64,000 bases of DNA from the NCBI RefSeq assembly GCF_000027125.1, contig NC_017626.1. One strand, written 5' to 3'. A program made the position numbers and the translations under genes. Below, piece after piece: positions 3,170-32,093 of this stretch. The stretch's first letter is position 1. Each line of letters starts with the position of its first letter. The notes beneath the pieces are model-generated. The model did not search any database and was not told where the DNA came from. It saw nothing but the letters and a program-made list of their open reading frames with translations. Source of the DNA: Escherichia coli 042. GTDB lineage: Bacteria; Pseudomonadota; Gammaproteobacteria; Enterobacterales; Enterobacteriaceae.

Positions 3170-4063
3170 TCACCTGAGAGCATTCAGCAGATGAATACGA
3201 AAGTTACGCGCAGCTGGACTTTGTTCATGATGTTTCGGCCAGACCAACCACATTTCAGAAACTGCATCCTCTTCAGCAATCGGCACCCAGCGCATTTCGT
3301 TGAGCTGAACACGTTTAAATGACGCAGGCAAAATTGAAACACCCAGACCGGCGGAAACCAGACCGATGATGGTCATTGCCTCGCCCACCTCCTGAGTGAT
3401 GACGGGCGTCAAATGGTAACGTCGCATCAGTCCGAGAATATCGTCATACAGCCCTGTCCCTACATGCGGATCAAAAAAGACAAAGGGTTCTTTCGCCAGT
3501 TCAGCCAGCGTTACATTCGGGTTATTTGCCAGGGGATGATCGTGCGGGATCATCGCCATAAGCGGTTCATGGACGATGACTGCGTGTTCAAGCGTCTCCG
3601 GTAACGCTGTGTTACGCAGCAATCCCATATCCAGCGTTCCTTCAATGAGCGGGGCGATTTGCTCGCGAGTGTTCATTTCGCGGGTTTGTAAATGGACATC
3701 AGGATAATCACGGCGAAACAGCGATAACGTATCGGACACCGCCCGAATAAAAGGAGCGGACGAAGTAAAACCAATGCGCAACTCCCCCGCTTCGCCCTGA
3801 TGCAGCCTTTCAGCGCGAGCGGCAGCGTCATCCACCATAGACAGGATTTGCCGACTATCTGCAAGAAACTGTTTTCCTGCTGCCGTCAGCAATACACTGC
3901 GATTGGTCCGTGCCAGCAGTCGGGCACCGATTTGTTGCTCCAGTGCCTGAATCTGCTGACTTAGCGGCGGTTGCGAAATATTCAGGCGGGCAGCCGCGCG
4001 CCCAAAATGCAGCTCTTCCGCAACAGCAACAAAGTAACGCAGATGACGAAGTTCAATATTCAT
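3170..4063 (-). CDS. ynfL: LysR-family transcriptional regulator
   Basis: 297 aa, N-terminal LysR HTH (MNIELRHLRYFVAVAEELHFGRAA); divergent from ynfM as in K-12. Confidence 0.85.
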   Translation of the reverse strand: MNIELRHLRYFVAVAEELHFGRAAARLNISQPPLSQQIQALEQQIGARLLARTNRSVLLTAAGKQFLADSRQILSMVDDAAARAERLHQGEAGELRIGFTSSAPFIRAVSDTLSLFRRDYPDVHLQTREMNTREQIAPLIEGTLDMGLLRNTALPETLEHAVIVHEPLMAMIPHDHPLANNPNVTLAELAKEPFVFFDPHVGTGLYDDILGLMRRYHLTPVITQEVGEAMTIIGLVSAGLGVSILPASFKRVQLNEMRWVPIAEEDAVSEMWLVWPKHHEQSPAARNFRIHLLNALR

Positions 4064-6247: not shown

Positions 6248-6331
6248 ATGGTGGGCCGTTATCGCTTTGAGTTCATTCTTATCATCCTTATTTTATGCGC
6301 ACTGATTGCCGCCCGTTTTTATCTTTCCTGA
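6248..6331 (+). CDS. ydgU: small membrane protein YdgU (27 aa)
   Basis: Short ORF MVGRYRFEFILIILILCALIAARFYLS between asr and ydgD; matches remembered YdgU; too short for the ORF track. Confidence 0.55.
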   Translation: MVGRYRFEFILIILILCALIAARFYLS

Positions 6332-6430
6332 TCGTAGTTATCTGATTTTACTCCCACTTTCATCCCGTCCCGTCTATAGTATTTATGAGGGTTTGCTTTT
6401 AATAATCATAATTACCCACCAGAGTGTGAT

Positions 6431-7972: not shown

Positions 7973-8383
7973 TGTCCTTCTCCTGCAAGAGAATTATTTT
8001 AATTTTCGCTTAATTCAGCGAAACCAAAGTAAAGTGGTCAAGCCCCGCGCTTAGCGCAAGCTTTGGCAGAAGAAAGGACTAAAGCGCGTTGCGCCAGTGC
8101 TGCTCACCTACGAGCAAGATAGTGGATGAGGTACGAAGATGGGTAAATGTAGAAAATAACGTCCTGAACAAATTGTCCATAATATTACAATTATCCGCAG
8201 TGTTGCTTCTCGTCATCGCGGATGATAATTGTCCTCGGTAGTTGAACACGCCTGATTTGTATCATAGCTTAAGAATTAACTCAAAATATTTTCACTTCTT
8301 TACCTGAGCGGTTTGATTTTCGTTATGATGACGGAGCGAAAAAGACATTATTATTAGCAAAGGAAGAAAAAACGGGGACAAGC

Positions 8384-8530
8384 ATGGCAAAGCCGATCAT
8401 CACGCTCAATGGCCTAAAAATCGTCATTATGTTGGGAATGCTGGTCATTATTCTCTGCGGTATCCGTTTTGCCGCCGAGATCATCGTGCCGTTTATTCTC
8501 GCATTATTTATTGCTGTTATATATAACTAA
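8384..8530 (+). pseudogene. tqsA: tqsA 5' fragment (codons 1–45) ending at the island junction
   Basis: Encodes [45 protein letters not shown] then IYN-stop from island DNA; remainder of tqsA resumes at 19546. Confidence 0.8.
8512..8520. repeat. attL core (TGCTGTTAT)
   Basis: Identical 9-mer at 19546..19554; lies at tqsA codons 44–46. Confidence 0.7.
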
Positions 8531-8591
8531 TTTCACTTAACGCATTGATTTAATTAAATGATTTGCACTACAAAAAGTGCCATAAATCGCA

Positions 8592-8650
8592 AAATGACTA
8601 CACCAGTGACTACACCGTTCGGTGCACTGTATGAAACAACGTGGAACAAA
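8592..8650. promoter_or_regulatory. arm-type repeat block (GACTACACC x2), homologous to block near attR
   Basis: atGACTACACCagtGACTACACCg plus shared flanking motifs, matching 19391..19460. Confidence 0.5.
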
Positions 8651-8929
8651 TAGACACAAGAAATATACAGGCGGGTCATCTTTCCAGGGGGAAGCGCGCT
8701 AATTCATGAGGGGCGTTAATGTTGATATGGGGATCCCCATAACGGGGCTACCGGATTTTTTTTCCGGTTAACTGTTAATCAGGCTGGTGGGCTTTACCTG
8801 TTTTGTAGGAGTGGTCATTATGACCATTCAGACAATGACCTTAATCAGAACTTTTCGCTAAAAAATGACGTTGGTCACGTCGTCCGGAAAGCACAAAATC
8901 CCGTCAATTTTTAATTAACGGTTAAACCG

Positions 8930-8990
8930 TCTTTTGTCACGGCGTGTCACTGGTTGTCACTCTCCGTCACGGTATGTCGCTACTCGTTAA
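8930..8990. repeat. helically phased TGTCAC/GTCAC array (about 5 copies)
   Basis: tgtcacggcgtgtcactggttgtcactctccgtcacggtatgtcgc, ~10–11 bp spacing; at 3' end of the leftmost island gene. Confidence 0.45.
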
Positions 8991-9268
8991 CGCCGTAACC
9001 GCTCCGGCTTCTTCCAGTGGTACGTAATTTTCTCCGTTTCCCGATACAGTGCCACGCGGCGATTGTAGGCCAGCATTTCAAGAACGCGGATCCGTATGTT
9101 GCGCATATCCACATCATTAAGCTGGATACCATCACGGCGCATCACCTCAGCAACCACACGCGCGTAATTTTCGGCGGTCACGCTGTCCGGCTGCGTGGCC
9201 TGTTCGTCATGCTGCTGGCTGATTCCGGTAACGCGGCGGATTAATCCCAGTAGTTCGGCTTCTGTCAT
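8987..9268 (-). CDS. hypothetical protein (93 aa)
   Basis: ORF 8987..9466 trimmed to Met MTEAELLG; upstream part of the track ORF is read-through of the cos repeat. Confidence 0.45.
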   Translation of the reverse strand: MTEAELLGLIRRVTGISQQHDEQATQPDSVTAENYARVVAEVMRRDGIQLNDVDMRNIRIRVLEMLAYNRRVALYRETEKITYHWKKPERLRR

Positions 9269-9301
9269 TGTGCCCCCATCGCTCTGATAGTCTGGTGTCG
9301 T

Positions 9302-9365
9302 CGGGTCCTTCCTGGAATTATGGCCCGTTACGGGGCGGCGACCTCGCGCGTTTTCACTATTTATG
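9302..9365 (+). other. lambda-type cos site, copy A (cosN GGGCGGCGACCT at 9333..9344)
   Basis: cgggtccttcc...gttacg|GGGCGGCGACCT|cgcgcgttttcactatttatgaaaattttt matches remembered lambda cosQ–cosN–left-end sequence. Confidence 0.75.
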
Positions 9366-9547
9366 AAAATTTTTCGGGATCCATGTCCGGTTTCTCTGCA
9401 AGTTAACCATATGAAAAATATAAAAACATGCTTTCCATGAACCGGACATGCGCAAAAAACAGACACTAAAACCGGACATCGAACCAGTTAACCGAAAGTG
9501 TGCACAAATCACATGCATTGCTGCGAGTGATTAACAAGTTATCGGCT

Positions 9548-9982
9548 TTACTGTTCTGTATCGGCTGATTGCTCCATGCTGGCACGGCGAACGCTTATGG
9601 CATGACGCCACCCAGCCAGAAAGCCAGCCATTTTATTTCGTGCCTTGCTCACATCTTCCGGTGAATAGCCGTAAATCTGCAAACCTTCATCAAATCGATG
9701 TTCTGTTTCTTCACTGGAGTACTCGTCACGCTCAGATGAAAGCAGCCTGGCAAACATAATTTTTTCCAGCGCACTGGTTTCTACGTGATATCTGATGGTC
9801 TCAAGACGGCTTTTACCTGAAGACCAAAGCAATGTATGCCCGATGTGATAACCGCCAGACTTTCCGCGATCCGCATTAAGATACGGCATCCCCTGTTTGG
9901 TCCATGCGCGAATAGTGGTTCTGTTAACCTTGAAATGTTCAGCTATTTCCTGCTGACTTACAAAACAAGCTTTATCAATCAT
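9548..9982 (-). CDS. Nu1-like small terminase homolog (N-terminal HTH); possible packaging-redirecting protein
   Basis: 144 aa; VSQQEIAEHFKVNRTTIRAWTKQGMP resembles lambda Nu1 VNKKQLADIFGASIRTIQNWQEQGMP; flanked by cos copies. Confidence 0.7.
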   Translation of the reverse strand: MIDKACFVSQQEIAEHFKVNRTTIRAWTKQGMPYLNADRGKSGGYHIGHTLLWSSGKSRLETIRYHVETSALEKIMFARLLSSERDEYSSEETEHRFDEGLQIYGYSPEDVSKARNKMAGFLAGWRHAISVRRASMEQSADTEQ

Positions 9983-10050
9983 AATGTTACCTTAACTGCA
10001 TGGTTAAATATTAATCAAGTGGTGGTGGTGTCACCTTCACGGAAAAACGT

Positions 10051-10114
10051 CATAAATAGCGAAAACCCGCGAGGTCGCCGCCCCGTAACGGGCCATAATT
10101 CCAGGAAGGACCCG
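10051..10114 (-). other. lambda-type cos site, copy B (cosN at 10072..10083), inverted relative to copy A
   Basis: Reverse complement is cgggtccttcctggaattatggcccgttacgGGGCGGCGACCTcgcgggttttcgctatttatg; ~90 bp upstream of the Nu1-like start. Confidence 0.75.
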
Positions 10115-10117
10115 TAA

Positions 10118-10138
10118 AAAAGCCGGATTTCTCCGGCC
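10118..10138 (-). terminator. rho-independent terminator after the 137-aa gene
   Basis: Minus strand gccggagaaatccggc followed by T-run; same hairpin recurs near 12390 and 12759. Confidence 0.6.
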
Positions 10139-10143
10139 TTGTC

Positions 10144-10557
10144 TCAGATGTTTTTCAGTATGCGATCGATGTCGCCGTCATCGCCCTGGTTTCTGCCATC
10201 GTATGCCATGCCAGCTGATACGGCTTGCGGGCTGTGCATGTCCATAAAGTTTTCAAAGGCTGCGGTAAGTTCCGGCGCAACCTTCGGACGTTCCTGCTCT
10301 ATGGTCATGCTAAGGATGCTTTTAGCCGTACCAACATCGATACAAGGCACGTTTGCCATTGCACGCAACAGCGGCTGATAGTCTTTATGCTCATGAAGCG
10401 CCATAATCGCATCAGCGCGCGGCTTGTCCTGCTCTTCCAGTTTGTTTAGTTGATGTACGGCCTCATAGGTTGATAAACCTCTGTCAGCCATTGCCCGCGC
10501 TTCGACTTTAAATTTACTCGCCAGCGGTAGCGTCATGATGCTTTCATTCGTTGCCAT
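10144..10557 (-). CDS. hypothetical protein (137 aa), last gene of capsid operon
   Basis: ORF; tightly packed after the gpD-like gene. Confidence 0.5.
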   Translation of the reverse strand: MATNESIMTLPLASKFKVEARAMADRGLSTYEAVHQLNKLEEQDKPRADAIMALHEHKDYQPLLRAMANVPCIDVGTAKSILSMTIEQERPKVAPELTAAFENFMDMHSPQAVSAGMAYDGRNQGDDGDIDRILKNI

Positions 10558-10569
10558 CGTTCCCCCTGC

Positions 10570-10905
10570 TTATCGGGCCAGCGGCTGAACGGATACGCCG
10601 GAACCCGCAAAGGCGGCGCATTTTTTCGCATCGGTGTCGACGCTCTCAGGCCAGTTAACGGCGGCAATATTGAATATCCCCGTCTTGTAACACTGTGCTG
10701 ATTTCTGCTTTGACGTGTCCACAGGGTACGAGGTCAGATAAACAGCCTTGCCAGATTCCTGACCATCCCACGGCTTAAACTCGCCATTGTCTGCCAGCAT
10801 CAGCGGGGTAAATTCCTGAATAACGCCAGCATCAGCGGCAAAATGTACCAACGTCGTGGATACCTGCTGACTGCCTGCAAATAACTCAATGTATGGAGTG
10901 TCCAT
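10570..10905 (-). CDS. head decoration protein, lambda gpD-like
   Basis: 111 aa; TPLMLADNGEFKPWDG...KTGIFNIAAVNWPESVDTDAKKCAAFAGSGVSVQ parallels lambda gpD (110 aa). Confidence 0.72.
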   Translation of the reverse strand: MDTPYIELFAGSQQVSTTLVHFAADAGVIQEFTPLMLADNGEFKPWDGQESGKAVYLTSYPVDTSKQKSAQCYKTGIFNIAAVNWPESVDTDAKKCAAFAGSGVSVQPLAR

Positions 10906-10917
10906 AGAATCCCCCCG

Positions 10918-11973
10918 TTAACCAATTTTGACGGTAACAAATTTGCGAATATCTGCCGGTACCGGCTGCGGTGCACTGTGTGTCTGCACGTACTCAATCG
11001 CCGGATCGCCGTCCTCAATCCAGTTTTTCGGGTAAAACATGTTTTGTGTTGCGCCCGTTCTTACCGCTTCCTGATCCATTATCGCACCATAGGCCACCAG
11101 CCCTTTATTGTTGGTGTTACCCAGGACCAGCAAATCAGGCTCAAGGAAATATTTTTCGGTACCATCGCTGTCAGTGTATTTGCCGGAATAGACGATAAGG
11201 GCCAGATCACCAAGATAGCCTTTAAAGCTCACCACTTCGCCCAGGTTTTTACAGGCCAGTTCGGCGGCGGATTCTGAACCACGGGAAAGATCGTACAGCT
11301 CACGGAATTTTTTAAAGCTGCGTAATGTGCGCCATACCTCAGCGCCCATAATCATGACGTTTGCGGGGCAACCAGCCTGATCAGCATAAAGCTCGATGTC
11401 ATAGATTGGGTCGTGCATGTCTTTATCCTGCTCGGACCATTTTTTACCCTTGGCCTGCTCTATGATGCAGTTTTCCGGTATTTTCCAGTCGATTTCATAG
11501 CGTTCTATGCCTTCGCCCTCAATGATGTTTTTTCCGGTCGTTACCGCATTCACCGCCAGCCATTCCACGCGTGCCTTAATGGCGTTTATCTGGCGGCGCA
11601 TGTTGCCAGTAATCAGGCGCATACGGCGATAGGTAGGGTCGTTAAGCTGTGCCGGATCTTCTCCAGCCATGCGCATGATGGTTTTCGTTGGATCGATTTC
11701 GTGCTTTGGCTTCATGTAGCCAGGTTTGATTGTGCTGGTTTCGTACCCTTTATCGCGCTGAACCTGGCTACCCACCATAGGCGAACAAAACGCCGACATG
11801 GTGACTTCTTCAATGTCCAGGGTATCCAGCATGATGTTTTGCGTGCTGAATGTCGCCACGTTCGGGAAAAACAGCGTGGTAAACAGAGGGCTGAATTTAA
11901 AATCCGCAATATCCCCGCGATTCAGGTACATGAAAAGCTGGTTAGTGTTAAGTGCCGTTGCTTTGCCTGCCAT
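10918..11973 (-). CDS. major capsid protein, lambda gpE family
   Basis: 351 aa (lambda gpE is 341 aa); adjacent to gpD-like gene. Confidence 0.75.
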   Translation of the reverse strand: MAGKATALNTNQLFMYLNRGDIADFKFSPLFTTLFFPNVATFSTQNIMLDTLDIEEVTMSAFCSPMVGSQVQRDKGYETSTIKPGYMKPKHEIDPTKTIMRMAGEDPAQLNDPTYRRMRLITGNMRRQINAIKARVEWLAVNAVTTGKNIIEGEGIERYEIDWKIPENCIIEQAKGKKWSEQDKDMHDPIYDIELYADQAGCPANVMIMGAEVWRTLRSFKKFRELYDLSRGSESAAELACKNLGEVVSFKGYLGDLALIVYSGKYTDSDGTEKYFLEPDLLVLGNTNNKGLVAYGAIMDQEAVRTGATQNMFYPKNWIEDGDPAIEYVQTHSAPQPVPADIRKFVTVKIG

Positions 11974-12212
11974 TATTCACCCCCATAATTTTTATGCATC
12001 CCAAGCGCCGCAAGTAAATAAGAGCGTACAAGTGAACCTATCGACGGCTCCGGCGTCATCAGCGGATCCAGTCCAGCCGCAACGCCAGCTTCATAGTTTT
12101 TTTTGTGGCGCTGCTTGAGCACCTCCACGATTTCGGGGCTTATGTACACCGAAACACCGCCTTTTTTCTCTTCAGCCATAGTAAGAAATTCCTCTTCGAC
12201 TAAAAAAATCAT
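11973..12212 (-). CDS. hypothetical protein (79 aa, or 68 aa from internal Met), first gene of capsid operon
   Basis: ORF; stop overlaps capsid start (ATGA). Confidence 0.45.
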   Translation of the reverse strand: MIFLVEEEFLTMAEEKKGGVSVYISPEIVEVLKQRHKKNYEAGVAAGLDPLMTPEPSIGSLVRSYLLAALGMHKNYGGE

Positions 12213-12235
12213 AACTGGATGTTTATCCAGTTATG
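12208..12235. promoter_or_regulatory. 12-bp inverted repeat (tcataactggat-gttt-atccagttatga) overlapping capsid-operon start codon
   Basis: Perfect 12-bp arms with 4-bp spacer; AT-rich region with further palindrome ttgcattttatgcaa just upstream. Confidence 0.5.
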
Positions 12236-12344
12236 ATTATAATCAGAATTGCATTTTATGCAATGATATTGAGTTATGTTGCAAATTATGAAATGATTAT
12301 CCCGATCACGAACGCCAGTGCATCCAAAAACCTCATATGCAAAA

Positions 12345-12410
12345 GCCCGATAAGAACCCTCTGACCTTATCGGGCTTTTTTTGGGCGCAAAAAAGCCGGA
12401 TTGCTCCGGC
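12345..12410. terminator. tandem hairpins (bidirectional terminator region, approximate)
   Basis: gcccgataag...cttatcgggc + T7, then aaaaaagccggattgctccggc. Confidence 0.55.
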
Positions 12411-12430
12411 TATGTGTGCTGTGTGCTGGC

Positions 12431-12655
12431 TCAGTCTCTGATCTCTTTCAGAAATTCTATCAATGCATCTATCTGTTCAGGATTTACCGCCAGCATTTCA
12501 CCGGATAGAGCACATCTCACAAAACCATGCTGATCCTTTTCAATCAGTGCGCCCGTCTCCAGGAATGCGCGGTAATCATTGATGCTCATCGTCTCCATGT
12601 TGTCAGCATGGTATTTATCACGCTGTTTTAATATCTCATCAAATTTCATCGGCAT
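12431..12655 (-). CDS. hypothetical protein (74 aa)
   Basis: ORF followed by terminator hairpin. Confidence 0.45.
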   Translation of the reverse strand: MPMKFDEILKQRDKYHADNMETMSINDYRAFLETGALIEKDQHGFVRCALSGEMLAVNPEQIDALIEFLKEIRD

Positions 12656-12758
12656 TGTTTTTTTCCTCTGTTGTGTCTGTTTGTTTCAGATAGTAACTAT
12701 GCCTGACCGTGACGAAAACCCGGTAATGCGCCATACCGTTTCAACTGGTGCAAAAAAA

Positions 12759-12774
12759 GCCGGATTTCTCCGGC
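12759..12774 (-). terminator. rho-independent terminator after PerC-like gene
   Basis: aaaaaaagccggatttctccggc. Confidence 0.6.
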
Positions 12775-12781
12775 TGTTTGA

Positions 12782-13054
12782 TTAGCTGTCCTGGTAATTG
12801 CGCCATATTTCATCACCAGCACCATCTATACCCATTTCGGCATAAGTGCGATCGACTGCCTTTTTCAGGTCTCCGAAATTATCCGGCGGCTCCGGTGCCC
12901 TCTGTGCCTTCCTTGAACATTCCAGCCGTCGCATCGTGATGTGATGCCGTTCCTTGTCTGTCTCCACCAGCTGCATGACTTCACCCCATCGCGCCGCCGC
13001 CCTCCGGTAAAAGCCTTTCGCCTCCAGTTCCTCCGCTATGCGGTCATGTACCAT
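12782..13054 (-). CDS. PerC-family transcriptional regulator-like protein
   Basis: ORF 12782..13174 trimmed to Met MVHDRIAEELEAKGFYRRAAARWGEVM, which resembles the PerC/Pch motif LExxGxWRRAAxRW. Confidence 0.55.
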   Translation of the reverse strand: MVHDRIAEELEAKGFYRRAAARWGEVMQLVETDKERHHITMRRLECSRKAQRAPEPPDNFGDLKKAVDRTYAEMGIDGAGDEIWRNYQDS

Positions 13055-13064
13055 CGTCACCCCC

Positions 13065-13475
13065 TCAGAACGAAATATCATCACCGTAAGGGTCATCGCC
13101 TCCCGCTGGTGGCTGATTACCCTGTGTGCCTGTGGTTTTGCGTCTGTTCCCGCCTGGACGTGCCGCGCGGGCACTGATTACGCTGTCTGCGATAACCTGC
13201 CAGCCCTGCCGCGTTTCTCCGTTCTGTCCGGTCCACTGGCTTACCTGCATCGTGCCGGATACGCTGGCAACATCGCCTTTTTGATGTTTAGCCAGGAAGT
13301 CGGCCTGTTTGCCAAATGCGATGACCGATAACCATAACGTCGCCTGTCCGTCCTGTGCCTGGCTGCATGGCAAAGATACCGCCATACGCGCCAGCGTCAT
13401 CGGTGTGCCCTTGCTGGTCTGTTTTACCTGCGGGTCGTCCACCAGCCGCCCGTAAGCGGCTATCTGTGCCGTCAT
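13065..13475 (-). CDS. ssb: single-stranded DNA-binding protein
   Basis: 136 aa; OB-fold segments parallel E. coli SSB; Gly/Pro-rich tail ending DDPYGDDISF (compare DFDDDIPF). Confidence 0.8.
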   Translation of the reverse strand: MTAQIAAYGRLVDDPQVKQTSKGTPMTLARMAVSLPCSQAQDGQATLWLSVIAFGKQADFLAKHQKGDVASVSGTMQVSQWTGQNGETRQGWQVIADSVISARAARPGGNRRKTTGTQGNQPPAGGDDPYGDDISF

Positions 13476-13753
13476 AATTCCACCTCTCCGGTTTTAACGT
13501 TGATGGTTGTTACCTGTTCCGCTTCGGCAATCTCCCGTTCTGTCAGCGTGGCAAAGTTTGCCGCCGCCGTGGTCATGAATGCGCTTATCAGGTCGGGATG
13601 TTCCTTCGCGTATCCTTCCCGCGTGTGGCGGTCTATCGTTCTGATTGCCACCTTTAAGGTGTGCTCAGTCATGTCTAACGCTTTATATTTTGGCTCTGTT
13701 CTGTCTCTGCGTTTTTGGGTCATTTCTCGCAACCTCTCACTTTTTCGCCTCAC
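13472..13753 (-). CDS. hypothetical protein (93 aa)
   Basis: ORF overlapping ssb start by 4 nt; 5' end overlaps iteron region. Confidence 0.4.
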   Translation of the reverse strand: MRRKSERLREMTQKRRDRTEPKYKALDMTEHTLKVAIRTIDRHTREGYAKEHPDLISAFMTTAAANFATLTEREIAEAEQVTTINVKTGEVEL

Positions 13754-13925
13754 TTTTTCAAGCGTCTCACTTCGTCGCAGTTGGGATTTTCGGTTTTTCT
13801 ATGTGTGTGTTTCATAAGTATTTTTTTACCCCTCACTTTTGAGGATGTATACAGGTCGAAAAGTGAGGGAGAGCGGGCTAATTTTGGCCCTCTTTCTATC
13901 CCCCTCGCTTTTGCTCCTCACTTTT
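13733..13925. repeat. candidate replication origin: CCTCACTTTT iterons (about 6 direct, 1 inverted) with AT-rich spacer
   Basis: Iterons at about 13733, 13748, 13764, 13829, 13859 (inverted), 13901, 13916; directly 3' of the replication ATPase gene. Confidence 0.6.
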
Positions 13926-15324
13926 ATAGCGGCGCTACATCATCCCCATCGATACGAATAACCCCATCTTTTTCCAGCTTGTACAGCCAGCGCCGGAAGT
14001 TTTTCATTTCATACCCCAGCTTTTTCATGTCATCACGTAACAGCGGGATCGTGCACTTGTCGCCGTTCTGTGTGCGTGAACGGATGCACCCCCATAGCGC
14101 GGTATGGTTTTCCGTCTTGTTCCCTGCCTCCTCGATGCGCTCCAGTTCAACAGGAGGGCGCGGATCATCCACCACCACCAGCGACGTGATTAATTCACCG
14201 TCAGCGTCGGTAAAAAGCTCCACCACGCGTAAGTCATATGCGGCTTCTTTGAGTTCCTCCGCGTCCTTCATTTTGGTGCATGAGATAACCAGCGCTTCGC
14301 TTCCTGCGTCCTCCCTGCGTATCCGGTATTCAGCATCCAGCGAAGCACGAAATGCACTGGAACCGCGCGCGCCTTTCGTCTCATCCTTGCCGGAATGGTG
14401 AACCACCAGCACCGTGGCCCCTGTGCGTCGTTTCAGTTCGTCACAACCACGGATAAACGCCCCCATATCACGGGAATCATTTTCATCATTCCCACCAAAG
14501 CAACGCGCCAGCGTATCCAGAATAATCATGCGTACAGGTTTACCCGTTTCCCGCTCCACCTGACGGGCAGCGATAACCATTTCATCAACATCAAGCGGGG
14601 CAGCCGGAAAGATGGGGCGGTTTACCAGATACAGATTTTTCACCTGCTCATCGTGCACAACCTCCCAGGCTTTTACACGACGCGGAACACCTATACCGCC
14701 TTCACCAACCACATAGAGAACCGCACCATGTGCAACCCTGCGGCCTCCCCACTGGCGACCAGTGGCAACATGGCACGCCCACGATCCAGCAAGGAATGAT
14801 TTATAGGACCCGCTAGCCCCGTATATGCTGCATAGCGATACCGCCGGAATAATCCCCTTAACCACGTAATCCAGTTGCGTGTCGTATCCGGTAGATCCAA
14901 CGCTCATCGGTAGCGTGGTTTTTCGCTGGTGTTTTTTTTCTTCCGCCGGCTCTTTCCCGCGCACCCGTTCCAGGTATTCGCGCCAGTTCTCCCGCATATG
15001 GCTGTGCATCCCTTCGGGGTAATAATTCGCATCAGTTACACCCGCCGCCGCCAGCTTGTGCGCAATGGCATTAATATTTGATGGCCTGATGTGGCCTGCC
15101 TTGTACAGCCGGACACAATAGCGCCCCTCGTCGATGATTCTCAGGTCTGCCAGTTCATCCAGTTGATCATCAGCCAGCACAACGGGAGGCACATTATCGC
15201 CAGCCAGTCGCCCGTCCTGTTCCTGCCACTGTTTCGCATGTGCCCAGGCATCACTACCCGCAAAAATAATGACTTCGGTCATCTTGTCGTAAGGCTGTTT
15301 TTTTAAGTTCGGTGCGCTTTTCAT
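13924..15324 (-). CDS. replication protein, RecA-fold ATPase / helicase-like (primase-replicase candidate)
   Basis: 466 aa; Walker A GASGSYKS, Walker B MIILDTLARCFGG, VLVVHHSGK motif typical of phage/plasmid RepA or DnaB-like ATPases. Confidence 0.75.
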   Translation of the reverse strand: MKSAPNLKKQPYDKMTEVIIFAGSDAWAHAKQWQEQDGRLAGDNVPPVVLADDQLDELADLRIIDEGRYCVRLYKAGHIRPSNINAIAHKLAAAGVTDANYYPEGMHSHMRENWREYLERVRGKEPAEEKKHQRKTTLPMSVGSTGYDTQLDYVVKGIIPAVSLCSIYGASGSYKSFLAGSWACHVATGRQWGGRRVAHGAVLYVVGEGGIGVPRRVKAWEVVHDEQVKNLYLVNRPIFPAAPLDVDEMVIAARQVERETGKPVRMIILDTLARCFGGNDENDSRDMGAFIRGCDELKRRTGATVLVVHHSGKDETKGARGSSAFRASLDAEYRIRREDAGSEALVISCTKMKDAEELKEAAYDLRVVELFTDADGELITSLVVVDDPRPPVELERIEEAGNKTENHTALWGCIRSRTQNGDKCTIPLLRDDMKKLGYEMKNFRRWLYKLEKDGVIRIDGDDVAPL

Positions 15325-15620
15325 TTCTTGCCCCTGAATCCGTTAACCATGGTTTTCAGCTTCTGGATGTTTGCCCGTGCCCTGGCGTTGCTGGTGGGCA
15401 CGTTATGCGGCGCGGTCTGTACCAGAGAAAAATCACGCCGGAACTGATAAACAGGCATCACGCAATCATATTCGTAACCTTCACGGCGGTAGGTTACGCG
15501 CCGTTCTTCCACGTCCTTAATCATTACCGTGCCGCCGTACTGGTCGCGGTAAATATCACCGCGCGTAAATTTAGGGTGAGTGTTGCCACTGGCAGTTAAG
15601 CCAGAATATTTAAGTTTCAT
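15321..15620 (-). CDS. hypothetical protein (99 aa)
   Basis: ORF overlapping rep start by 4 nt. Confidence 0.45.
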   Translation of the reverse strand: MKLKYSGLTASGNTHPKFTRGDIYRDQYGGTVMIKDVEERRVTYRREGYEYDCVMPVYQFRRDFSLVQTAPHNVPTSNARARANIQKLKTMVNGFRGKK

Positions 15621-15625
15621 TATTT

Positions 15626-15859
15626 TTATTCTCCGGTGTGCTGTTCTTTATATCTGTCGTGCAATAGATCTATTTCTTGCAGTTCCATTATTACAGGCTC
15701 AAGAAGCGTTATTAATGCTGTGGCAATTCTTGATTTTTGTTTGTCGCGTTCATTGTCGCCAAGTGTTTCAAGCCATATGCGCAATATTTCCATCATGTTT
15801 TCACTGTGAGAAAGTGCAAGAAATGCGCGGTCTATTGTTTGGTGGTAAATATCACGCAT
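15626..15859 (-). CDS. hypothetical protein (77 aa)
   Basis: ORF in operon context. Confidence 0.4.
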   Translation of the reverse strand: MRDIYHQTIDRAFLALSHSENMMEILRIWLETLGDNERDKQKSRIATALITLLEPVIMELQEIDLLHDRYKEQHTGE

Positions 15860-16319
15860 GGCTTACATCCTCAGGAAATTTTCTTCTATAACGCGCCTCT
15901 GCCACATATTCCGCATAATCGGCGGCGATATTCAGTACATCAAGCCCCGTTGATTTATATTCTCTCGTGGAAAGTAAGAAAAAAGCCGCTCTAATAAGTT
16001 CTGGCATTGACGAAAGCGCATCAGCCGCATCATCAGGAACGCCGGAAAATTCCTGTTTCAGGGAATTAAAACGATCATCACGCATAACCCCCCCCCCATT
16101 TTCACAATCAGCAATCAGGATAGCTTTGGCCTCATTCAGCGCCGTATCAGCACTAAATTGCATGACAGCCAGTGAGTGAGGAACGAAAGCACCGGCATAT
16201 TCTGTTTCGCTGGTGGCGTGCTTATGTGCCCTGTCCGCGATAACAGAAATATCAATCAGCGCGTGCATCAGCGTTTTGATGGCTTCGGCGGCTGCGTCCG
16301 GTGTGGTTTTATTGTGCAT
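15852..16319 (-). CDS. hypothetical protein (155 aa) containing a G10 homopolymer
   Basis: ORF; codons GGG-GGG-GGG at 16088..16097. Confidence 0.45.
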   Translation of the reverse strand: MHNKTTPDAAAEAIKTLMHALIDISVIADRAHKHATSETEYAGAFVPHSLAVMQFSADTALNEAKAILIADCENGGGVMRDDRFNSLKQEFSGVPDDAADALSSMPELIRAAFFLLSTREYKSTGLDVLNIAADYAEYVAEARYRRKFPEDVSHA

Positions 16320-16521
16320 AAAGCATCCCCTGAATATTCGTGTTAATCATTCCGGCACGTTTTGTGATTTCCTGTAATGATTCCCTTGTGGCGACAATTG
16401 CTTCATCTGGTAAGTGGTAATTACACACCACGCGACCTTTATCCACATTGACCAGTAGCTGCCCTGTGAATTTCTCACGAAACTGAATGCGGTTAAGGTC
16501 AGTAAGTGACAGATTAATCAT
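16309..16521 (-). CDS. hypothetical protein (about 70 aa from internal Met MINLSL)
   Basis: ORF 16309..16563 starts at GTG; ATG at 16521 is the likelier start. Confidence 0.4.
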   Translation of the reverse strand: MINLSLTDLNRIQFREKFTGQLLVNVDKGRVVCNYHLPDEAIVATRESLQEITKRAGMINTNIQGMLYAQ

Positions 16522-16711
16522 GGCGCACCTCCTGACGAATACGGGCGGCAAATACAGCAACACAACCGGACGGGCAACGGTTACGCGCTTCGCGTTCCGT
16601 CCAGGCGGTTACGTGGATGATTTGAGATTCTCCGGCACTCAGTGCCAGAAAACGCCACACAAAGGCCGTTTGTGTGTGTACAAGGTGTGGTATATGATTT
16701 ACAGCAACCAT
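16514..16711 (-). CDS. hypothetical small protein (about 65 aa), first gene leftward of regulatory region
   Basis: ORF 16514..16786 trimmed to Met MVAVNH. Confidence 0.3.
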   Translation of the reverse strand: MVAVNHIPHLVHTQTAFVWRFLALSAGESQIIHVTAWTEREARNRCPSGCVAVFAARIRQEVRHD

Positions 16712-16803
16712 AACGGCTCCTAGTTTACGTTGTTGGTTAGAAGCCCTGCGAGTGGTAACGACACTTGCGGGGCTTTGTCTTTTCATCGATTACCTTGATA
16801 AAG

Positions 16804-16884
16804 GTGTCAGCCACTATATTAGTAACGGGTGTCAGCCACGTCAATAGTGTTTTTCCGTTTTCTTGTGTGTATACTGTCAGCCAC
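16804..16884. promoter_or_regulatory. divergent regulatory region with three direct repeats GTCAGCCAC
   Basis: Repeats at 16806..16814, 16831..16839, 16876..16884; tatact box and aggaaa RBS precede the plus-strand small gene. Confidence 0.6.
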
Positions 16885-16905
16885 CTAATAACGAGGAAAT
16901 CAGAT

Positions 16906-17085
16906 ATGGCAACAAAAGCAGTTAATGCAAAATCCAAAAAGCTTGAGGCTCGAGTACCACACGCAATAGCTGATGCTGTAGAAAATTTAAAGGAAGATGG
17001 CGAAAGTACAGGGCAATTTATCGTTTCGGCACTTGAAGGCGAGATCAAACGCCGCCAGCGCCGCAAGGCCAAAGAATCAGAATAA
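16906..17085 (+). CDS. small ribbon-helix-helix-like DNA-binding protein (59 aa), candidate island regulator
   Basis: KKLEARVPHAIADAVENLKEDGESTGQFIVSALEGEI resembles Arc/CopG RHH; transcribed divergently from the leftward gene block. Confidence 0.5.
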   Translation: MATKAVNAKSKKLEARVPHAIADAVENLKEDGESTGQFIVSALEGEIKRRQRRKAKESE

Positions 17086-17127
17086 TCACTATCAGCGCCG
17101 TGGTGTGAGGTATTACGGCGCATTGCT

Positions 17128-17316
17128 ATGCAGGACAACACAATGACCGATAAAGAATTGACCAAAACATTATCACCGGCACGGAAAAGACGGCGCAGAA
17201 AGATAGAGCATGAATCAGAAAGATTCGCACCATGTGCTTTTGCCCTTGAGCAATTCCTTAAAGAGTACAGGGAAAAGCGCTCATTGCAGGTATGGCAACG
17301 AACTGAACCAGACTGA
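17128..17316 (+). CDS. hypothetical basic small protein (62 aa)
   Basis: ORF downstream of RHH gene; Arg/Lys-rich. Confidence 0.35.
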   Translation: MQDNTMTDKELTKTLSPARKRRRRKIEHESERFAPCAFALEQFLKEYREKRSLQVWQRTEPD

Positions 17317-17394
17317 TTGCATTGCCCACCAGCCTGATAGCGGCTATCATCCCCGTGCTTATGTTTGGGATCACACACACAAACGGCGCAGCGG

Positions 17395-17430
17395 GTTATC
17401 TGTTCAGAAAGGCGGCTCCATTTCGGGGCC
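17395..17430 (+). terminator. candidate terminator of the plus-strand pair (approximate)
   Basis: ggcggctccatttcggggccgc followed by tttttta. Confidence 0.45.
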
Positions 17431-17585
17431 GCTTTTTTTATACCTGAAAAACCCCAATTTTGTTGTTTTTCAGTTTCACCAGGGCGAACGAATCCCCGCC
17501 CACGTTCTGGCGTATATTCAATCTTCATGGTTATAGCTCTGTGTTCAGATGATTGATGTGTGGCGGCTGCGTGCCGCCAGCGTGA

Positions 17586-17774
17586 TTAATGAACTGCCTT
17601 GCAGCTATCCTTCCAGGCCAGAACCTCGGATAAAGACCAGCCAACGGAACGACCGCCAAGTTTACGACGTGATGGGAATTGTCCGGCCTTTTCCAGGCGG
17701 TAGCGACACGTACGGCTAAGGCCGGTTAGTTTTTCGCATTCTTTTTCACGTATAAACCGATCAGTGCTTAACAC
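17586..17774 (-). CDS. alpA: AlpA-family phage transcriptional regulator / excisionase-like
   Basis: 62 aa; LTGLSRTCRYRLEKAGQFPSRRKLGGRSVGWSLSEVLAW matches AlpA HTH pattern. Confidence 0.8.
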   Translation of the reverse strand: MLSTDRFIREKECEKLTGLSRTCRYRLEKAGQFPSRRKLGGRSVGWSLSEVLAWKDSCKAVH

Positions 17775-18140
17775 TATTGCCCCCCCTTTCGTTTCTTAAA
17801 GAGTCATCAGGTGTCTTATTGTGTCGTATTGTTCCCGCTAGAGTGATGAATGGCAAATATTGAGGATGTATGATTTACAGAAAATGAAACAGTAAGAATA
17901 AAATCTTTTAAATTCATGTTAATACAAAGGCATAAAATATTGTTTCATGCCTTTTTTCTCGCTCTTTAAAGAGTGATTCGCTAGTGTATAAAAAACCAGT
18001 GACACATTAAAAATCAGCCACTTATAAATCTGTATGCTTTTTCGCCTCTTGTTCGTGGTTGTTCCACATTGTTGCTCATTGTTGCACGTTGTATCTGTTC
18101 GCATATACAGTATGCGCATACTGAAAAAACACGAAAAAAA

Positions 18141-19370
18141 TTATTTTCTTCTGGCTACTGGTAGCGTGGTTACGTTTTCATGTGTTCCCGCCAGTATCCC
18201 TAACCGCTCCGTCCACATATCCAGCGCATTGCGTTTAGCATCCAGATAACGGGAATGATTATAAACTCGCTGCATTCCTGGCATCTGGTGGCCTGTAAGC
18301 TGCTCCACGACATGCGGATCAACGCCTAAATCGTTCAGCATGGTTGTAAAGGTGCGCCGGATGTCATGCAGTGACCAGTGAGGATGATTAAGCCTCCTGT
18401 GCGCTAATCTTCCATACTGCGATACGCTGGCCTCCTGTTTCACTTCCCCCAGCAATAAGCCCGTGTGCCTGTTCTGCTCCACCAGCTGCGTGACGAACGG
18501 CAGGATCGCTTCCGGTATGGGCCGGAATATTGCGACCTTCGTTTTGCTGTGCTCCTTCGGAACGGTCCATAGCATTTCCGTAAAATCCCACTCCCCGATC
18601 TCCGATAACCTCAGTTCTACCGTTCTGGCTCCGAAGACAATCAGGAGGCGGATTAACGCGACGTAGTAAGGGGAGAATATTTTTTTGTCCAGTGCCTGCA
18701 ATAATTCGCCAAGTTCTTTGTTACTTAAGACACGTTCGCTTATATCCGGTTTTTTCCCAACGTCCGCCACGTTCAGATCGTCCAGAACGTTGCTGATTGC
18801 ATAGCGCCGCCTACGGCAGAACTTAAGCGCCTGTTTGCACGCCTGTAGCACGAATCCGGCAGTAACAGGCGTTCGCTTTGCCACCTGGTCAAAACAGGCC
18901 AGCCAGTGCCGTAGCTCGCATTTATCCAGCGGCATAGCACCAATCTGCTGTATTACGTGATTATTAAGTCGCCTTTTCAGGGCGATATAATCCACGCGGT
19001 TTTCCTTTACGTAATACTCAAGCCAGTAGGTGAGCGCATCGCCAACCGTTACCGGCTTTAACGCTTCCTGTACGGTGTAATTAAGCTCATGACGTGGATT
19101 TTTCCCCTCTGCCAGCCATGCGCGACACTGGGCGGCTTTTTCCCTGGCTGATTTCAGGCTCAGATCAGGATAACTTCCCAGCTTAATGCGTTCGGGTCGT
19201 GTCTCCCTTCCCGTTCCGGCCCTGTATGTGAAATACCAGGTCAATTTCCCTGATGTTAAATATTTCACGCTCAGGTTTCCGCCATCACTATAAAACGTGT
19301 TTTTCTCCGCTGGCTTACCATGAAGTTTCCTTAGCAAGGTATCGCTCAGTTTGTTCATTGCTCTGCTCAC
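18141..19370 (-). CDS. int: tyrosine site-specific integrase (P4-like, N-terminal arm-binding domain)
   Basis: 409 aa; C-terminal HDIRRT...GHQ...VYNHSRY catalytic motifs; adjacent to attR. Confidence 0.9.
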   Translation of the reverse strand: MSRAMNKLSDTLLRKLHGKPAEKNTFYSDGGNLSVKYLTSGKLTWYFTYRAGTGRETRPERIKLGSYPDLSLKSAREKAAQCRAWLAEGKNPRHELNYTVQEALKPVTVGDALTYWLEYYVKENRVDYIALKRRLNNHVIQQIGAMPLDKCELRHWLACFDQVAKRTPVTAGFVLQACKQALKFCRRRRYAISNVLDDLNVADVGKKPDISERVLSNKELGELLQALDKKIFSPYYVALIRLLIVFGARTVELRLSEIGEWDFTEMLWTVPKEHSKTKVAIFRPIPEAILPFVTQLVEQNRHTGLLLGEVKQEASVSQYGRLAHRRLNHPHWSLHDIRRTFTTMLNDLGVDPHVVEQLTGHQMPGMQRVYNHSRYLDAKRNALDMWTERLGILAGTHENVTTLPVARRK

Positions 19371-19390
19371 GTTTTACCCCCTCTTTACGA

Positions 19391-19460
19391 AAAAGTGACT
19401 ACACCAGTGACTACACCGATCGTTGCACAAAGGGCTACAACGTGAAACAAGCTGGAACAA
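19391..19460. promoter_or_regulatory. arm-type repeat block (GACTACACC x2) between int start and attR
   Basis: gtGACTACACCagtGACTACACCg at 19397..19417, homologous to 8592..8650. Confidence 0.5.
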
Positions 19461-19545
19461 GGAAAATCACAAATCTGTTGATAATCAAAAACATAATGCA
19501 CAGCCTGAAACATTATGAAACAGCAAAAAACACCAAATGATAAAA

Positions 19546-19554
19546 TGCTGTTAT
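19546..19554. repeat. attR core (TGCTGTTAT)
   Basis: Identical to 8512..8520; in-frame stops TGA TAA immediately upstream. Confidence 0.7.
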
Positions 19555-20452
19555 TCTTAACCCGCTGGTGCAACACATGGTCCGCTGGCGAGTGCCGCGT
19601 GTACTGGCGGTGTCGATTTTGATGACCATCATCGTGATGGCGATGGTGTTGCTGTTAGCTTATCTGGGTTCCGCGCTCAACGAGTTGACGCGGACGTTAC
19701 CGCAATATCGCAACTCTATTATGACGCCGCTGCAAGCGATTGAACCGTTGTTGCAACGCGTAGGGATTGATGTCTCAGTTGACCAACTGGCGCATTACAT
19801 TGATCCGAACGCGGCGATGACGTTGCTCACCAACTTATTGACGCAGTTATCTAATGCCATGTCATCAATATTTTTATTGCTGCTGACGGTGCTGTTTATG
19901 CTGCTCGAAGTGCCACAATTGCCCGGAAAATTTCAGCAAATGATGGCGCGTCCGGTTGAAGGGATGGCGGCGATTCAGCGTGCGATTGACAGTGTTTCTC
20001 ATTATCTGGTGCTGAAAACAGCCATCAGCATCATCACCGGCCTGGTCGCCTGGGCGATGCTCGCCGCACTCGATGTTCGCTTCGCTTTTGTCTGGGGATT
20101 GCTGGCCTTTGCGCTTAATTACATCCCTAATATTGGTTCAGTTCTCGCAGCAATTCCCCCTATCGCTCAGGTACTGGTGTTTAATGGCTTCTACGAAGCG
20201 TTGTTGGTGCTGGCGGGATATCTGCTGATTAATCTGGTCTTCGGCAATATTCTGGAGCCGCGCATCATGGGACGTGGGCTGGGGCTTTCGACATTGGTGG
20301 TATTTTTGTCGTTGATTTTTTGGGGATGGTTGTTAGGACCGGTGGGTATGCTGCTTTCCGTGCCGTTGACAATTATTGTCAAAATTGCGCTTGAACAAAC
20401 AGCGGGAGGTCAAAGCATCGCCGTTCTGTTAAGCGATCTCAATAAAGAGTGA
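19546..20452 (+). pseudogene. tqsA: tqsA 3' portion (codons 44–344), separated from its start and promoter by the island
   Basis: In-frame continuation [14 protein letters not shown]...; track ORF 19568..20452 begins at an internal GTG. Confidence 0.8.

Positions 20453-29730: not shown

Positions 29731-32093
<2,363 letters not shown>

Follow-up and report, generated by a model that had tools for sequence, protein, structure and literature searches.

The window analysed here is a stretch of 64,000 nucleotides (64 kb) from Escherichia coli 042, and it carries an island of 11 kb (approximately 8.5-19.6 kb) that is integrated in tqsA. The gene content of this island comprises int, alpA, rep, ssb, perC, a gpE-like capsid gene, a gpD-like decoration gene and rpp, together with a lambda-type cos. 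A cos PICI of the EcCICFT073 type is recognized by co-oriented int, alpA, and replication genes over about 10-15 kb, without lysis or tail genes, and an integrase, a Phage_AlpA protein, an AAA_25 RepA-type helicase, and an SSB are all present in the 11 kb. A further mark of the group is a lambda-type cos combined with an Rpp protein; the island has two inverted cos copies (I1) and an Rpp homologue. It is a phage satellite of the EcCICFT073 type, with the same set of int, alpA, rep, perC, capsid and decoration homologues, two cos sites, and rpp as EcCICFT073. The cos sites of EcCICFT073 have been described in the literature, helper-phage induction and transfer are known for that element itself, and cf-PICIs have been reported to share int, alpA, and rep with it. 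The island in the window differs from EcCICFT073 in its integration site, which is tqsA and not near phoQ, and in an extra cassette with a 74-aa gene, which brings a third copy of the hairpin described below. The genes and the cos site that surround the hairpins are as follows.

9548-9982, minus strand, rpp (redirecting phage packaging) gene, lying after T1 and cos (E=4.5e-31 to RppC, PDB 6HLK)
10037-10114, minus strand, lambda-type cos site, homologous to lambda cos and directly downstream of T1
10144-10557, minus strand, 137-aa gene, last in the capsid operon, likely a Nu3-like scaffold
10570-10905, minus strand, lambda gpD-like head decoration gene (Pfam PF02924, E=5e-18)
10918-11973, minus strand, lambda gpE-like major capsid gene (Pfam PF03864, E=5.5e-50)
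11973-12212, minus strand, 79-aa gene, first in the capsid operon (PHROG 3255)
12782-13054, minus strand, PerC-family gene (Pfam PF06069, E=1e-42)
13065-13475, minus strand, satellite SSB gene of the replication module (Pfam PF00436)

The open frame of perC reaches 13174, and RefSeq relatives (L003) annotate 273 nt. The cos site contains a cosQ-like AGGACCC at 10107-10113 and the cohesive-end sequence AGGTCGCCGCCC at 10072-10083. A scan of genome contigs with the 137-aa protein gave no confirmed relative, and a protein database search found its family only in E. coli, at 62-94% identity.

The pattern AAAAAA-GCCGGA-TT(T/G)C-TCCGGC occurs three times in the window, at 10122-10137, 12395-12410, and 12759-12774, all within 2.7 kb. 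The first and third copies read GCCGGATTTCTCCGGC and the second reads GCCGGATTGCTCCGGC. The initial annotation had reported this hairpin after the 137-aa, 74-aa, and PerC-like genes, which is borne out. It had written the motif as GCCGGA-(T/A)TTCT-CCGGC; the hairpin itself stands, but the variable position is the third loop base (TTTC vs TTGC on the plus strand), not the first. At up to two mismatches, the 64-kb window holds four matches compared to 0.14 expected, and none of 100 shuffles gave four. The fourth (position 31485, two mismatches) has a broken stem and is noise. A repeat search of the window grouped the three hairpins in one 30-nt direct-repeat family (D2). These copies and the elements associated with them are listed here.

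10116-10138, minus strand, T1, predicted terminator after the 137-aa gene (hairpin 10137 to 10122, GAAA loop, U6 10121 to 10116)
12236-12264, minus strand, candidate capsid-operon promoter, read from the sequence (-10 TATAAT 12241 to 12236; -35 TTGCAT 12263 to 12258)
12341-12382, no strand assigned, T2', an additional, unrelated hairpin adjoining T2 in tandem (-21.7 kcal/mol)
12389-12411, minus strand, T2, predicted terminator after the 74-aa gene (hairpin 12410 to 12395, GCAA loop, U6 12394 to 12389)
12389-12775, minus strand, 74-aa cassette (promoter-like region, gene at 12431-12655, and T2), with hairpin copies 2 and 3 exactly at its two ends
12690-12718, minus strand, weak candidate promoter of the 74-aa gene, read from the sequence (TTTTCG, 17-nt spacer, TACTAT)
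12752-12775, minus strand, T3, predicted terminator after the PerC-like gene (hairpin 12774 to 12759, GAAA loop, U7 12758 to 12752)

The A6-A7 run ahead of each hairpin on the plus strand corresponds to U6-U7 after the hairpin on the minus strand, the strand of all three upstream genes. The RNA stem GCCGGA/UCCGGC has 6-7 bp with five G-C pairs and is closed by a GAAA or GCAA tetraloop. Folding energies range from -12.5 to -13.6 kcal/mol, and the z-scores of the hairpins folded in a 46-nt context range from -3.3 to -4.5. The distance from stop codon to hairpin is 6 nt for the 137-aa gene, 19 nt for the 74-aa gene, and 6 nt for the PerC-like gene. In intrinsic terminators, the GC-rich stem has about 5-14 bp and the loop 3-8 nt, a U run follows directly on the 3' side, and a co-oriented gene lies upstream; T1-T3 each show all of these features. 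A consensus terminator scan called T2 and T3 and passed over T1, presumably because the A-tract was counted as paired with the U-tract and left too few free T for the scan rule; the T1 hairpin and its U6 are evident on reading the sequence. The earlier reading of these structures as minus-strand rho-independent terminators was correct as to their form, and by their sequence the three copies are well-formed, co-oriented intrinsic terminators.

In most respects, they resemble canonical E. coli and phage intrinsic terminators, with a 6-7 bp GC stem, a tetraloop, 3' U6-U7, an upstream A-tract, and a post-stop position. The difference is that one exact sequence is used here at several junctions and throughout a family, whereas the terminators of neighbouring genes normally differ. 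The element is tidy but ordinary genome punctuation and not a new kind of molecular system. The hairpins lie outside all curated RNA families, such as the P4 CI RNA and seqA-seqC immunity elements: an Rfam search (E<=1, both strands) of the whole island (8300-19800) gave zero matches, and P4-type CI/seqA elements were not detected. An integron attC or other site-specific cassette site was also considered. Sites of the attC kind span about 57-141 bp, and their inverted repeats are imperfect, with extrahelical bases and conserved core sites. This candidate was rejected, as the hairpin here is perfect, 16 nt long, and the symmetry extends no further.

If active, these minus-strand hairpins with their U6-U7 tracts would release RNA polymerase at three points. 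The first is the end of the replication/regulation module, where T3 lies after perC; the second is the end of the single-gene 74-aa cassette; and the third is the end of the capsid operon (79-aa, gpE-like, gpD-like, and 137-aa genes), where T1 ends 3 nt before cosQ. Termination at T1-T3 in vivo is what their structure predicts. The division of the island into three separate transcription units, as first proposed, is plausible in view of promoter-like elements and a tandem terminator, but four units are likelier than three given the rpp unit beyond cos. T2' points towards separate units, as this stronger hairpin and T2 form a tandem ahead of the capsid genes. Its 10-bp stem is formed by GCCCGATAAG/CTTATCGGGC and lies between A4 and T7. 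T2' is part of the capsid module, and in 26 distinct relatives the stem is invariant and the loop variable. The candidate capsid-operon promoter is nearly invariant overall in 26 distinct relatives: its TATAAT does not vary, and a 17-bp palindrome (12248-12264), inside which the -35 falls, is conserved. Another palindrome, at 12207-12238, was rejected as a leader terminator, since the predicted start site lies inside it and its arms are without compensatory changes in most relatives; it is more likely an operator.

The BLAST homology of the cassette starts at query 2491 and ends at 2877, which are the cassette edges. The cassette is present in 34 of 76 loci anchored on the SSB gene and absent from CFT073 and L013, both of which equal the window minus the cassette. 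CFT073 likewise has hairpins after perC and before cos1, two copies in all, and cf-PICI relatives, which are capsid-forming PICIs like EcCIEDL933, carry the hairpin on both sides of the 74-aa gene. The 74-aa protein matches PHROG 1957, a group of unknown function. Between T3 and the gene, the TTTTCG-17-TACTAT motif is invariant in 10 distinct relatives, and it may represent a weak promoter. Morons of lambdoid phages are extra genes with their own promoter and terminator, inserted between two genes. The 74-aa gene is similar to a moron in that it is a single gene, inserted in some genomes and lacking in otherwise similar ones, and comes with a terminator of its own and a promoter-like region, but it is flanked on both sides by the same terminator, its predicted promoter is weak, and it has no phage match. 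An origin as a phage moron was rejected because the gene gave no tblastn match among 50,697 phage records.

Beyond the window, the 22-26 nt element was found in 933 of 5426 complete E. coli genomes, a count that includes many near-identical isolates and not independent events, and in more than 120 viral contigs. When site 1 was located by its flanks and not by the hairpin, all 88 copies had the identical 16-mer, and the adjacent 6-7 nt occurred in four forms. Since database matches to the 137-aa family were confined to E. coli, this site could not be compared across genera. All 76 SSB-anchored loci, which were found via their SSB protein (85-100% identical), have a GCCGGA/TCCGGC stem where the replication module ends. 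Variation in these loci is almost all in the loop (GAAA, GCAA, GUAA, and a pentaloop GAAAA), and 6 of the 102 hairpins matched there deviate within a 20-nt pattern (the 16-mer plus TTTT). A census of all copies gave GAAA 100, GCAA 89, GUAA 3, GGAA 1, and GAAG 3, so that the loops on the minus-strand RNA are GNRA throughout except for the three GAAG. Possible compensatory change in the stem was limited to a single variant (GCCGGGA...TCCCGGC in L122). The invariance of the stem could be due to purifying selection alone, without a role in recombination.

Within the satellite family, the hairpin element is always situated at module borders. About 10 classes of left (downstream) flank and 8 classes of right (upstream) flank combine freely around it, and the combinations are reticulate: left classes 3 and 0 are each paired with right classes 2, 0, and 1. 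Junctions that differ on one side have only A4-7, or 1-3 nt, in common beyond the 16-mer. For hairpin 2, identity between the window and a cf-PICI (L002) is 46% on the left and 94% on the right, and for hairpin 3 the comparison with L001 gives 90% on the left and 55% on the right; the homology breakpoint with cf-PICIs is located at T2. The loop variant tracks the left flank in some cases and the right flank in others, an association that recurrent mutation and non-independent genomes can mimic. The loop base is probably neutral, and recurrent mutation can thus imitate recombination in loop-flank combinations.

Short conserved boundary sequences have been proposed as sites of homologous recombination between lambdoid phage modules in the modular theory. 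The hairpin shares with them its shortness, its conservation between otherwise unrelated modules, its position exactly at mosaic junctions, and flanks that assort freely in reticulate combinations. It differs from them in that the putative linker is a predicted terminator, resides in phage satellites (PICIs), and has a copy at nearly every junction. The original papers on this theory are reportedly those of Susskind and Botstein. At most phage mosaic boundaries, boundary sequences have not been found.

On this basis, the 22-26 nt element (A-run, 16-mer, and 1-3 nt) would be the sequence conserved at junctions throughout the satellite family, and the three copies in the window would be identical because of this. 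Reuse of the hairpin does not by itself imply a transcription layout, as had been suggested; it seems best explained by common descent and recombination in the family and not by the design of one island. As the element is the only sequence common to the alternative modules that meet there, it would be the place of module exchange, most likely by homologous recombination within the hairpin itself. In this way, a cos/Rpp/lambda-like capsid module could be swapped for an HK97-type capsid-forming module, alternative perC alleles could be exchanged, and the 74-aa cassette could be gained or lost between two direct copies. From the breakpoint positions, we infer that the crossover falls inside the hairpin. 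The reading as a whole, in which one terminator punctuates an EcCICFT073-type satellite and doubles as the family junction where modules exchange, is in our judgement probable.

An unlikely alternative is that descent alone accounts for the pattern. Each gene would keep its ancestral terminator, modules would be joined illegitimately just past the U-tract, and the hairpin would be a passenger and not the crossover site. At every junction, the hairpin does remain with the 3' end of the gene that precedes it, and illegitimate recombination is the commonly favoured source to which phage mosaicism is ascribed in the literature. However, many independent illegitimate events would be needed, all within a few nucleotides of the same element. 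Moreover, in several combinations the loop variant goes with the downstream (left) flank: cf-PICI flank class 0 has GCAA with three different upstream genes, while the same perC end has GAAA when joined to class 1. The two direct copies that bound the 74-aa cassette are also what homologous gain and loss would be expected to leave. Crossover in the hairpin is not cleanly separable from illegitimate joining of gene-plus-terminator units at the U-tract.

We give similarly low credence to the idea that the terminators are conditional, i.e., that the hairpins block leaky transcription in the uninduced state and that a processive antiterminator, either the AlpA of the island or a Q/N-type factor of the helper, reads through all three after induction to give one long operon. 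Gram-negative PICIs have been published as unidirectionally transcribed, with AlpA as the activator required for induction, and the island encodes a protein of the Phage_AlpA family (PF05930, E=5e-17). In addition, the P. aeruginosa protein named AlpA is described as a processive antiterminator that overrides intrinsic terminators, even heterologous ones. A PDB search (E<=1) with the island AlpA, however, gave 8C3T, another AlpA-family protein, as its sole match and no AlpA chain from P. aeruginosa, and antitermination by the satellite AlpA is speculative. The tandem terminators directly before the capsid promoter-like region, with its perfect -10 and own palindromes, suggest independent control instead. 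The array recalls lambda tR' with Q and P. aeruginosa AlpA with tB in that intrinsic terminators of a phage-type array would answer to one activator, but the satellite hairpins lie after genes and not in a promoter-proximal leader.

It is very unlikely that the hairpin is a packaging signal, namely an extension of cosQ that aids terminase recognition or cutting, and not an RNA-level terminator. The 3-nt distance between the end of the U-tract and cosQ, which is kept in CFT073, would fit such a role, as would the cos-like left flank of 83 of 180 family junctions, which falls in six sequence classes at always equal spacing. Against this, 71 copies lie at junctions without cos-like sequence (flank classes 3, 0, and 5), the second, inverted cos of the island has no hairpin, and in lambda, HK629/630, Stx phages, and Gifsy-1 the cos-region homology stops one base before the hairpin. 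In addition, the loops on the transcribed strand vary within the GNRA rule. Next to hairpin 3, the left flank is roughly collinear with cos (27 nt, 70% identical; D5), and a multiple alignment gave no clear support for a decayed cos. Finally, look-alike terminators of independent origin, whether through coincidence or through convergence towards a good GC stem and a stable tetraloop, can be rejected as highly improbable. Convergence does happen, since A5 plus the 16-mer turns up in IMG/VR in approximately 20 phage contexts that are unrelated, often in the form of bidirectional terminators, but the window has three copies in 2.7 kb vs 0.14 expected, and hundreds of related islands have the element at homologous junctions, with the A-run and first flanking base also in common.

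Terminators go unmentioned in the published PICI descriptions examined (EcCICFT073 and cf-PICIs). If confirmed, T1-T3 would provide a transcription map for an island that has hitherto been drawn as one unidirectional block: an early/replication unit, an optional cassette, a capsid operon, and then cos and rpp. The element is useful as a landmark for annotating the module borders of satellites, flags spurious small CDS calls that run across the hairpin, and represents a natural splice point for engineering synthetic PICIs. Exchange at the hairpin is also a candidate mechanism for a published puzzle, namely that cf-PICIs and cos PICIs have identical int/alpA/rep and unrelated packaging modules; the swap point between these packaging modules would be a single 22-26 nt terminator. 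Why the element has been kept identical in sequence, and not just in structure, can be answered tentatively, and with considerable doubt: it may be a universal adaptor for E. coli phage satellites, or it may be recognized by a factor that disables termination after induction. If it is such an adaptor, homologous recombination inside the terminator may allow packaging modules, perC alleles, and accessory cassettes to pass between PICIs of the cos and capsid-forming types. If true, this would explain how the same int-alpA-rep core acquires entirely different ways of exploiting a helper phage.

All three hairpins belong to an 11-kb island that splits tqsA, the start of that gene being at 8384-8530 and its remainder following from 19568; every island gene is on the minus strand. 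It encodes an integrase, an AlpA-family regulator, a RepA-type helicase, SSB, a PerC-family protein, a lambda gpE-like capsid protein, a gpD-like decoration protein, and a homologue of the redirecting-phage-packaging protein Rpp (E=4.5e-31 to PDB 6HLK). Two inverted lambda-type cos copies flank rpp (pair I1; 9302-9379 and 10037-10114, 78 nt, 91% complementary). The same gene set has been published for the cos PICI EcCICFT073, in which c1499 and c1500 are the capsid and decoration homologues and Rpp accompanies two cos sites; the cos pair matches its cos1/cos2, and published accounts have yet to settle what that pair is for. In CFT073 the hairpin occurs twice, once after the perC-like gene and once after the 137-aa gene; at the latter, 3 nt separate the end of the U-tract from cosQ of the cos nearer to rpp. 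The island thus belongs to an established class of element. Near both island ends, inside the split tqsA, lies a direct repeat of 76 nt (76% identical, 8591-8666 and 19392-19467) that is probably the attL/attR region, and three copies of TTTTnCnCCTCACTTTT at 13741-13925, 83-85 bp apart and directly 3' of the replication gene, are likely the iterons that PICIs are reported to have at their origin. The 137-aa protein (10144-10557, minus strand), whose family was found in E. coli only, aligns with the C-terminal end of PHROG 53 'head maturation protease', covering positions 496-567 of the 583 in the profile, a part that in lambda is the Nu3 scaffold region; its RefSeq name 'phage head-tail connector protein' is thus doubtful.

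A sequence search confirmed the threefold occurrence of the hairpin reported in the initial annotation:

10122-10137, minus-strand hairpin T1, core GCCGGATTTCTCCGGC, after the 137-aa gene
12395-12410, minus-strand hairpin T2, core GCCGGATTGCTCCGGC, after the 74-aa gene
12759-12774, minus-strand hairpin T3, core GCCGGATTTCTCCGGC, after the PerC-like gene

The variable position in the first description needs a small correction, being the third loop base on the plus strand (T or G). Allowing up to two mismatches, the window holds four matches, where dinucleotide-preserving shuffles predict 0.14; one of them, at 31485, has a broken stem and was discarded as noise. A repeat search grouped T1-T3 as one 30-nt direct-repeat family (D2). 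The proposed minus-strand terminator form also held: every copy has the GC stem GCCGGA/UCCGGC, a GAAA or GCAA tetraloop, and then U6-U7 (six or seven A residues before each copy on the plus strand), and lies 6 nt (137-aa), 19 nt (74-aa), or 6 nt (PerC-like) past the stop codon of a minus-strand gene. Folding energies are -12.5 to -13.6 kcal/mol, in context 3.3-4.5 standard deviations more stable than shuffles. A simple terminator scan reports T2 and T3 and omits T1, presumably by counting its upstream A-tract as pairing with the U-tract. No plus-strand gene converges on T1, T2, or T3 and no T-run follows them on the plus strand, so they are one-directional signals. RefSeq places a tiny CDS across hairpin 3 and the perC end, calling it 'hypothetical protein' (129 nt) or, for part of the genomes, 'trigger factor' (114 nt); the annotation is probably spurious:

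12697-12825, minus strand, window
6307-6420, related locus L001
6299-6427, related locus L002
10655-10783, related locus L003

To avoid selecting on the hairpin itself, conservation was assessed in two anchored sets, one found via the flanks of the T1 site and the other via SSB. At the T1 site the 16-mer is identical in 88 of 88 loci, with the adjoining 6-7 nt in four forms. The same stem ends the replication module in all 76 SSB-anchored loci (85-100% protein identity), with GAAA, GCAA, or GUAA loops and a GAAAA pentaloop in eight loci; 6 of 102 matched hairpins deviate within the 20-nt pattern. Over all copies the loops are GAAA, GCAA, GUAA, GGAA, and three GAAG, so that nearly all variation falls at the N of a GNRA loop in the minus-strand RNA, a pattern that fits selection acting on the hairpin in the transcript. 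At the ssb end of one divergent island the stem reads GCCGGGA...TCCCGGC, possibly a paired insertion; the stems compared showed no other covariation, and none is expected because divergence is low.

From their sequence, we predict with high confidence that T1-T3 are ordinary intrinsic terminators, which would end the early/replication unit (T3), the cassette carrying the 74-aa gene (T2), and the capsid operon (T1). Indirect evidence suggests separate transcription units. After T2 comes another hairpin, T2' (12341-12382, -21.7 kcal/mol), which is unrelated to it and has an invariant stem and a variable loop in 26 distinct relatives. Past T2', the capsid-operon control region (12207-12264) has an invariant TATAAT and a -35-like TTGCAT inside a 17-bp perfect palindrome, ATTGCATAAAATGCAAT. 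A second palindrome with 13-bp arms (12207-12238) covers the predicted start site; in relatives its left arm varies without compensation except in locus L009. Both palindromes are probably operator sites for a regulator. Between T3 and the 74-aa gene the promoter-like motif is weak, though invariant, and nothing stronger occurs in that stretch. T2' itself has a better terminator form on the plus strand (T7 tail) than on the minus strand, and some 85 nt upstream of it the plus strand has a weak promoter-like site, TTGAGT and AATGAT with a 17-nt spacer; this region (12300-12385, plus strand) may encode a small divergent RNA, for which Rfam gave no match, as for the island as a whole.

Conditional read-through of T1-T3 must be kept as a rival, because the AlpA of P. 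aeruginosa acts as a processive antiterminator; the island AlpA, however, has no detectable sequence match to P. aeruginosa AlpA in PDB. EcCICFT073-type PICIs are published as transcribed unidirectionally with genes activated by AlpA, and the EcCICFT073 and capsid-forming PICI (cf-PICI) descriptions make no mention of terminators.

Beside termination, the element would serve the satellite family as a junction. Its 21-mer including the A-run occurs in over 120 contigs of IMG/VR, most of them satellites about 10 kb long, and a related query was positive in 933 of 5426 complete E. coli genomes, a single genome having as many as six sites; in the records inspected the setting was satellite islands, not core genes. 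When 199 copies were sorted by flanks, the roughly 180 from satellites fell into about 10 downstream flank classes (cos variants, the lambda-like capsid operon control region, the 74-aa gene upstream region, and an HK97-type capsid-forming module among them) and 8 upstream gene-end classes (including the 137-aa gene, the 74-aa gene, two perC alleles, and ssb), in many combinations. The lambda-like capsid flank, for instance, occurs next to either perC end and next to the end of the 74-aa gene, and so does the cf-PICI flank. Junctions differing on one side share, beyond the 16-mer, only the A-run (4-7 nt) or 1-3 nt. Identity steps sharply at the hairpin:

Window T2 against cf-PICI L002: left 46%, right 94%
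Window T3 against L001: left 90%, right 55%
Single junction of L013 against the window: left 86% (T2 left flank), right 92% (T3 right flank)

BLAST alignments to E. coli genomes end at query positions 2491 (A-run of copy 2) and 2877 (end of copy 3). Since identity steps and alignment ends fall there, the 74-aa gene is a cassette bounded exactly by two direct hairpin copies; of the 76 SSB-anchored loci, 34 have it, and CFT073 lacks it. Homology breakpoints sit on the hairpin, and we infer crossovers inside it. The stretch common to junctions is 22-26 nt, close to the shortest identity reported to support efficient homologous recombination in E. coli. With moderate confidence, the element is the family's conserved junction and a likely crossover site for module exchange and cassette gain or loss, which would explain why T1-T3 are identical. 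The initial reading of three separate units from one reused hairpin is partly supported, and copy identity is ascribed to the junction. The closest E. coli islands match the window at 99.8% identity up to about 10044, the cosN/cosB border, where the homology stops; they carry a 180-aa 'terminase small subunit' where the window has the 144-aa Rpp; the conserved cosN is therefore also a module junction.

That the hairpin is part of cos was rejected, as cos-region homology to lambda, HK629/630, Stx phages, and Gifsy-1 stops one base before it, it adjoins only the copy at 10037-10114 and is lacking at the second, inverted cos, and 71 copies are without any cos-like flank. Adjacency to cosQ-like sequence at fixed spacing (83 of 180 copies, six cos sequence classes) is most simply read as cos lying in the untranscribed gap past an operon end and being inherited together with that end. 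Islands without perC and cassette have the hairpin after ssb and then a divergent cos-like sequence (such as CCGCGCCTCCCGCCCCGT...AGGAGGCCCCGT) at the spacing of true cos; it may represent a further, third variant of cos or else a remnant:

10585-10660, L004
about 3420-3500, L226
flank classes 4, 8, and 16

Among established concepts, those nearest to this element are the moron architecture and the short boundary sequences, conserved between modules, that have been proposed to underlie mosaicism in lambdoid phages. The EcCICFT073 and cf-PICI papers describe int, alpA, and rep as common to both element types and do not identify a junction between their modules. The feature is a clearly delimited fresh example of an intrinsic terminator combined with a mosaic boundary sequence in a known satellite type. 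It is unsurprising to a specialist, and is useful for annotation and for thinking about packaging-module swaps among satellites.
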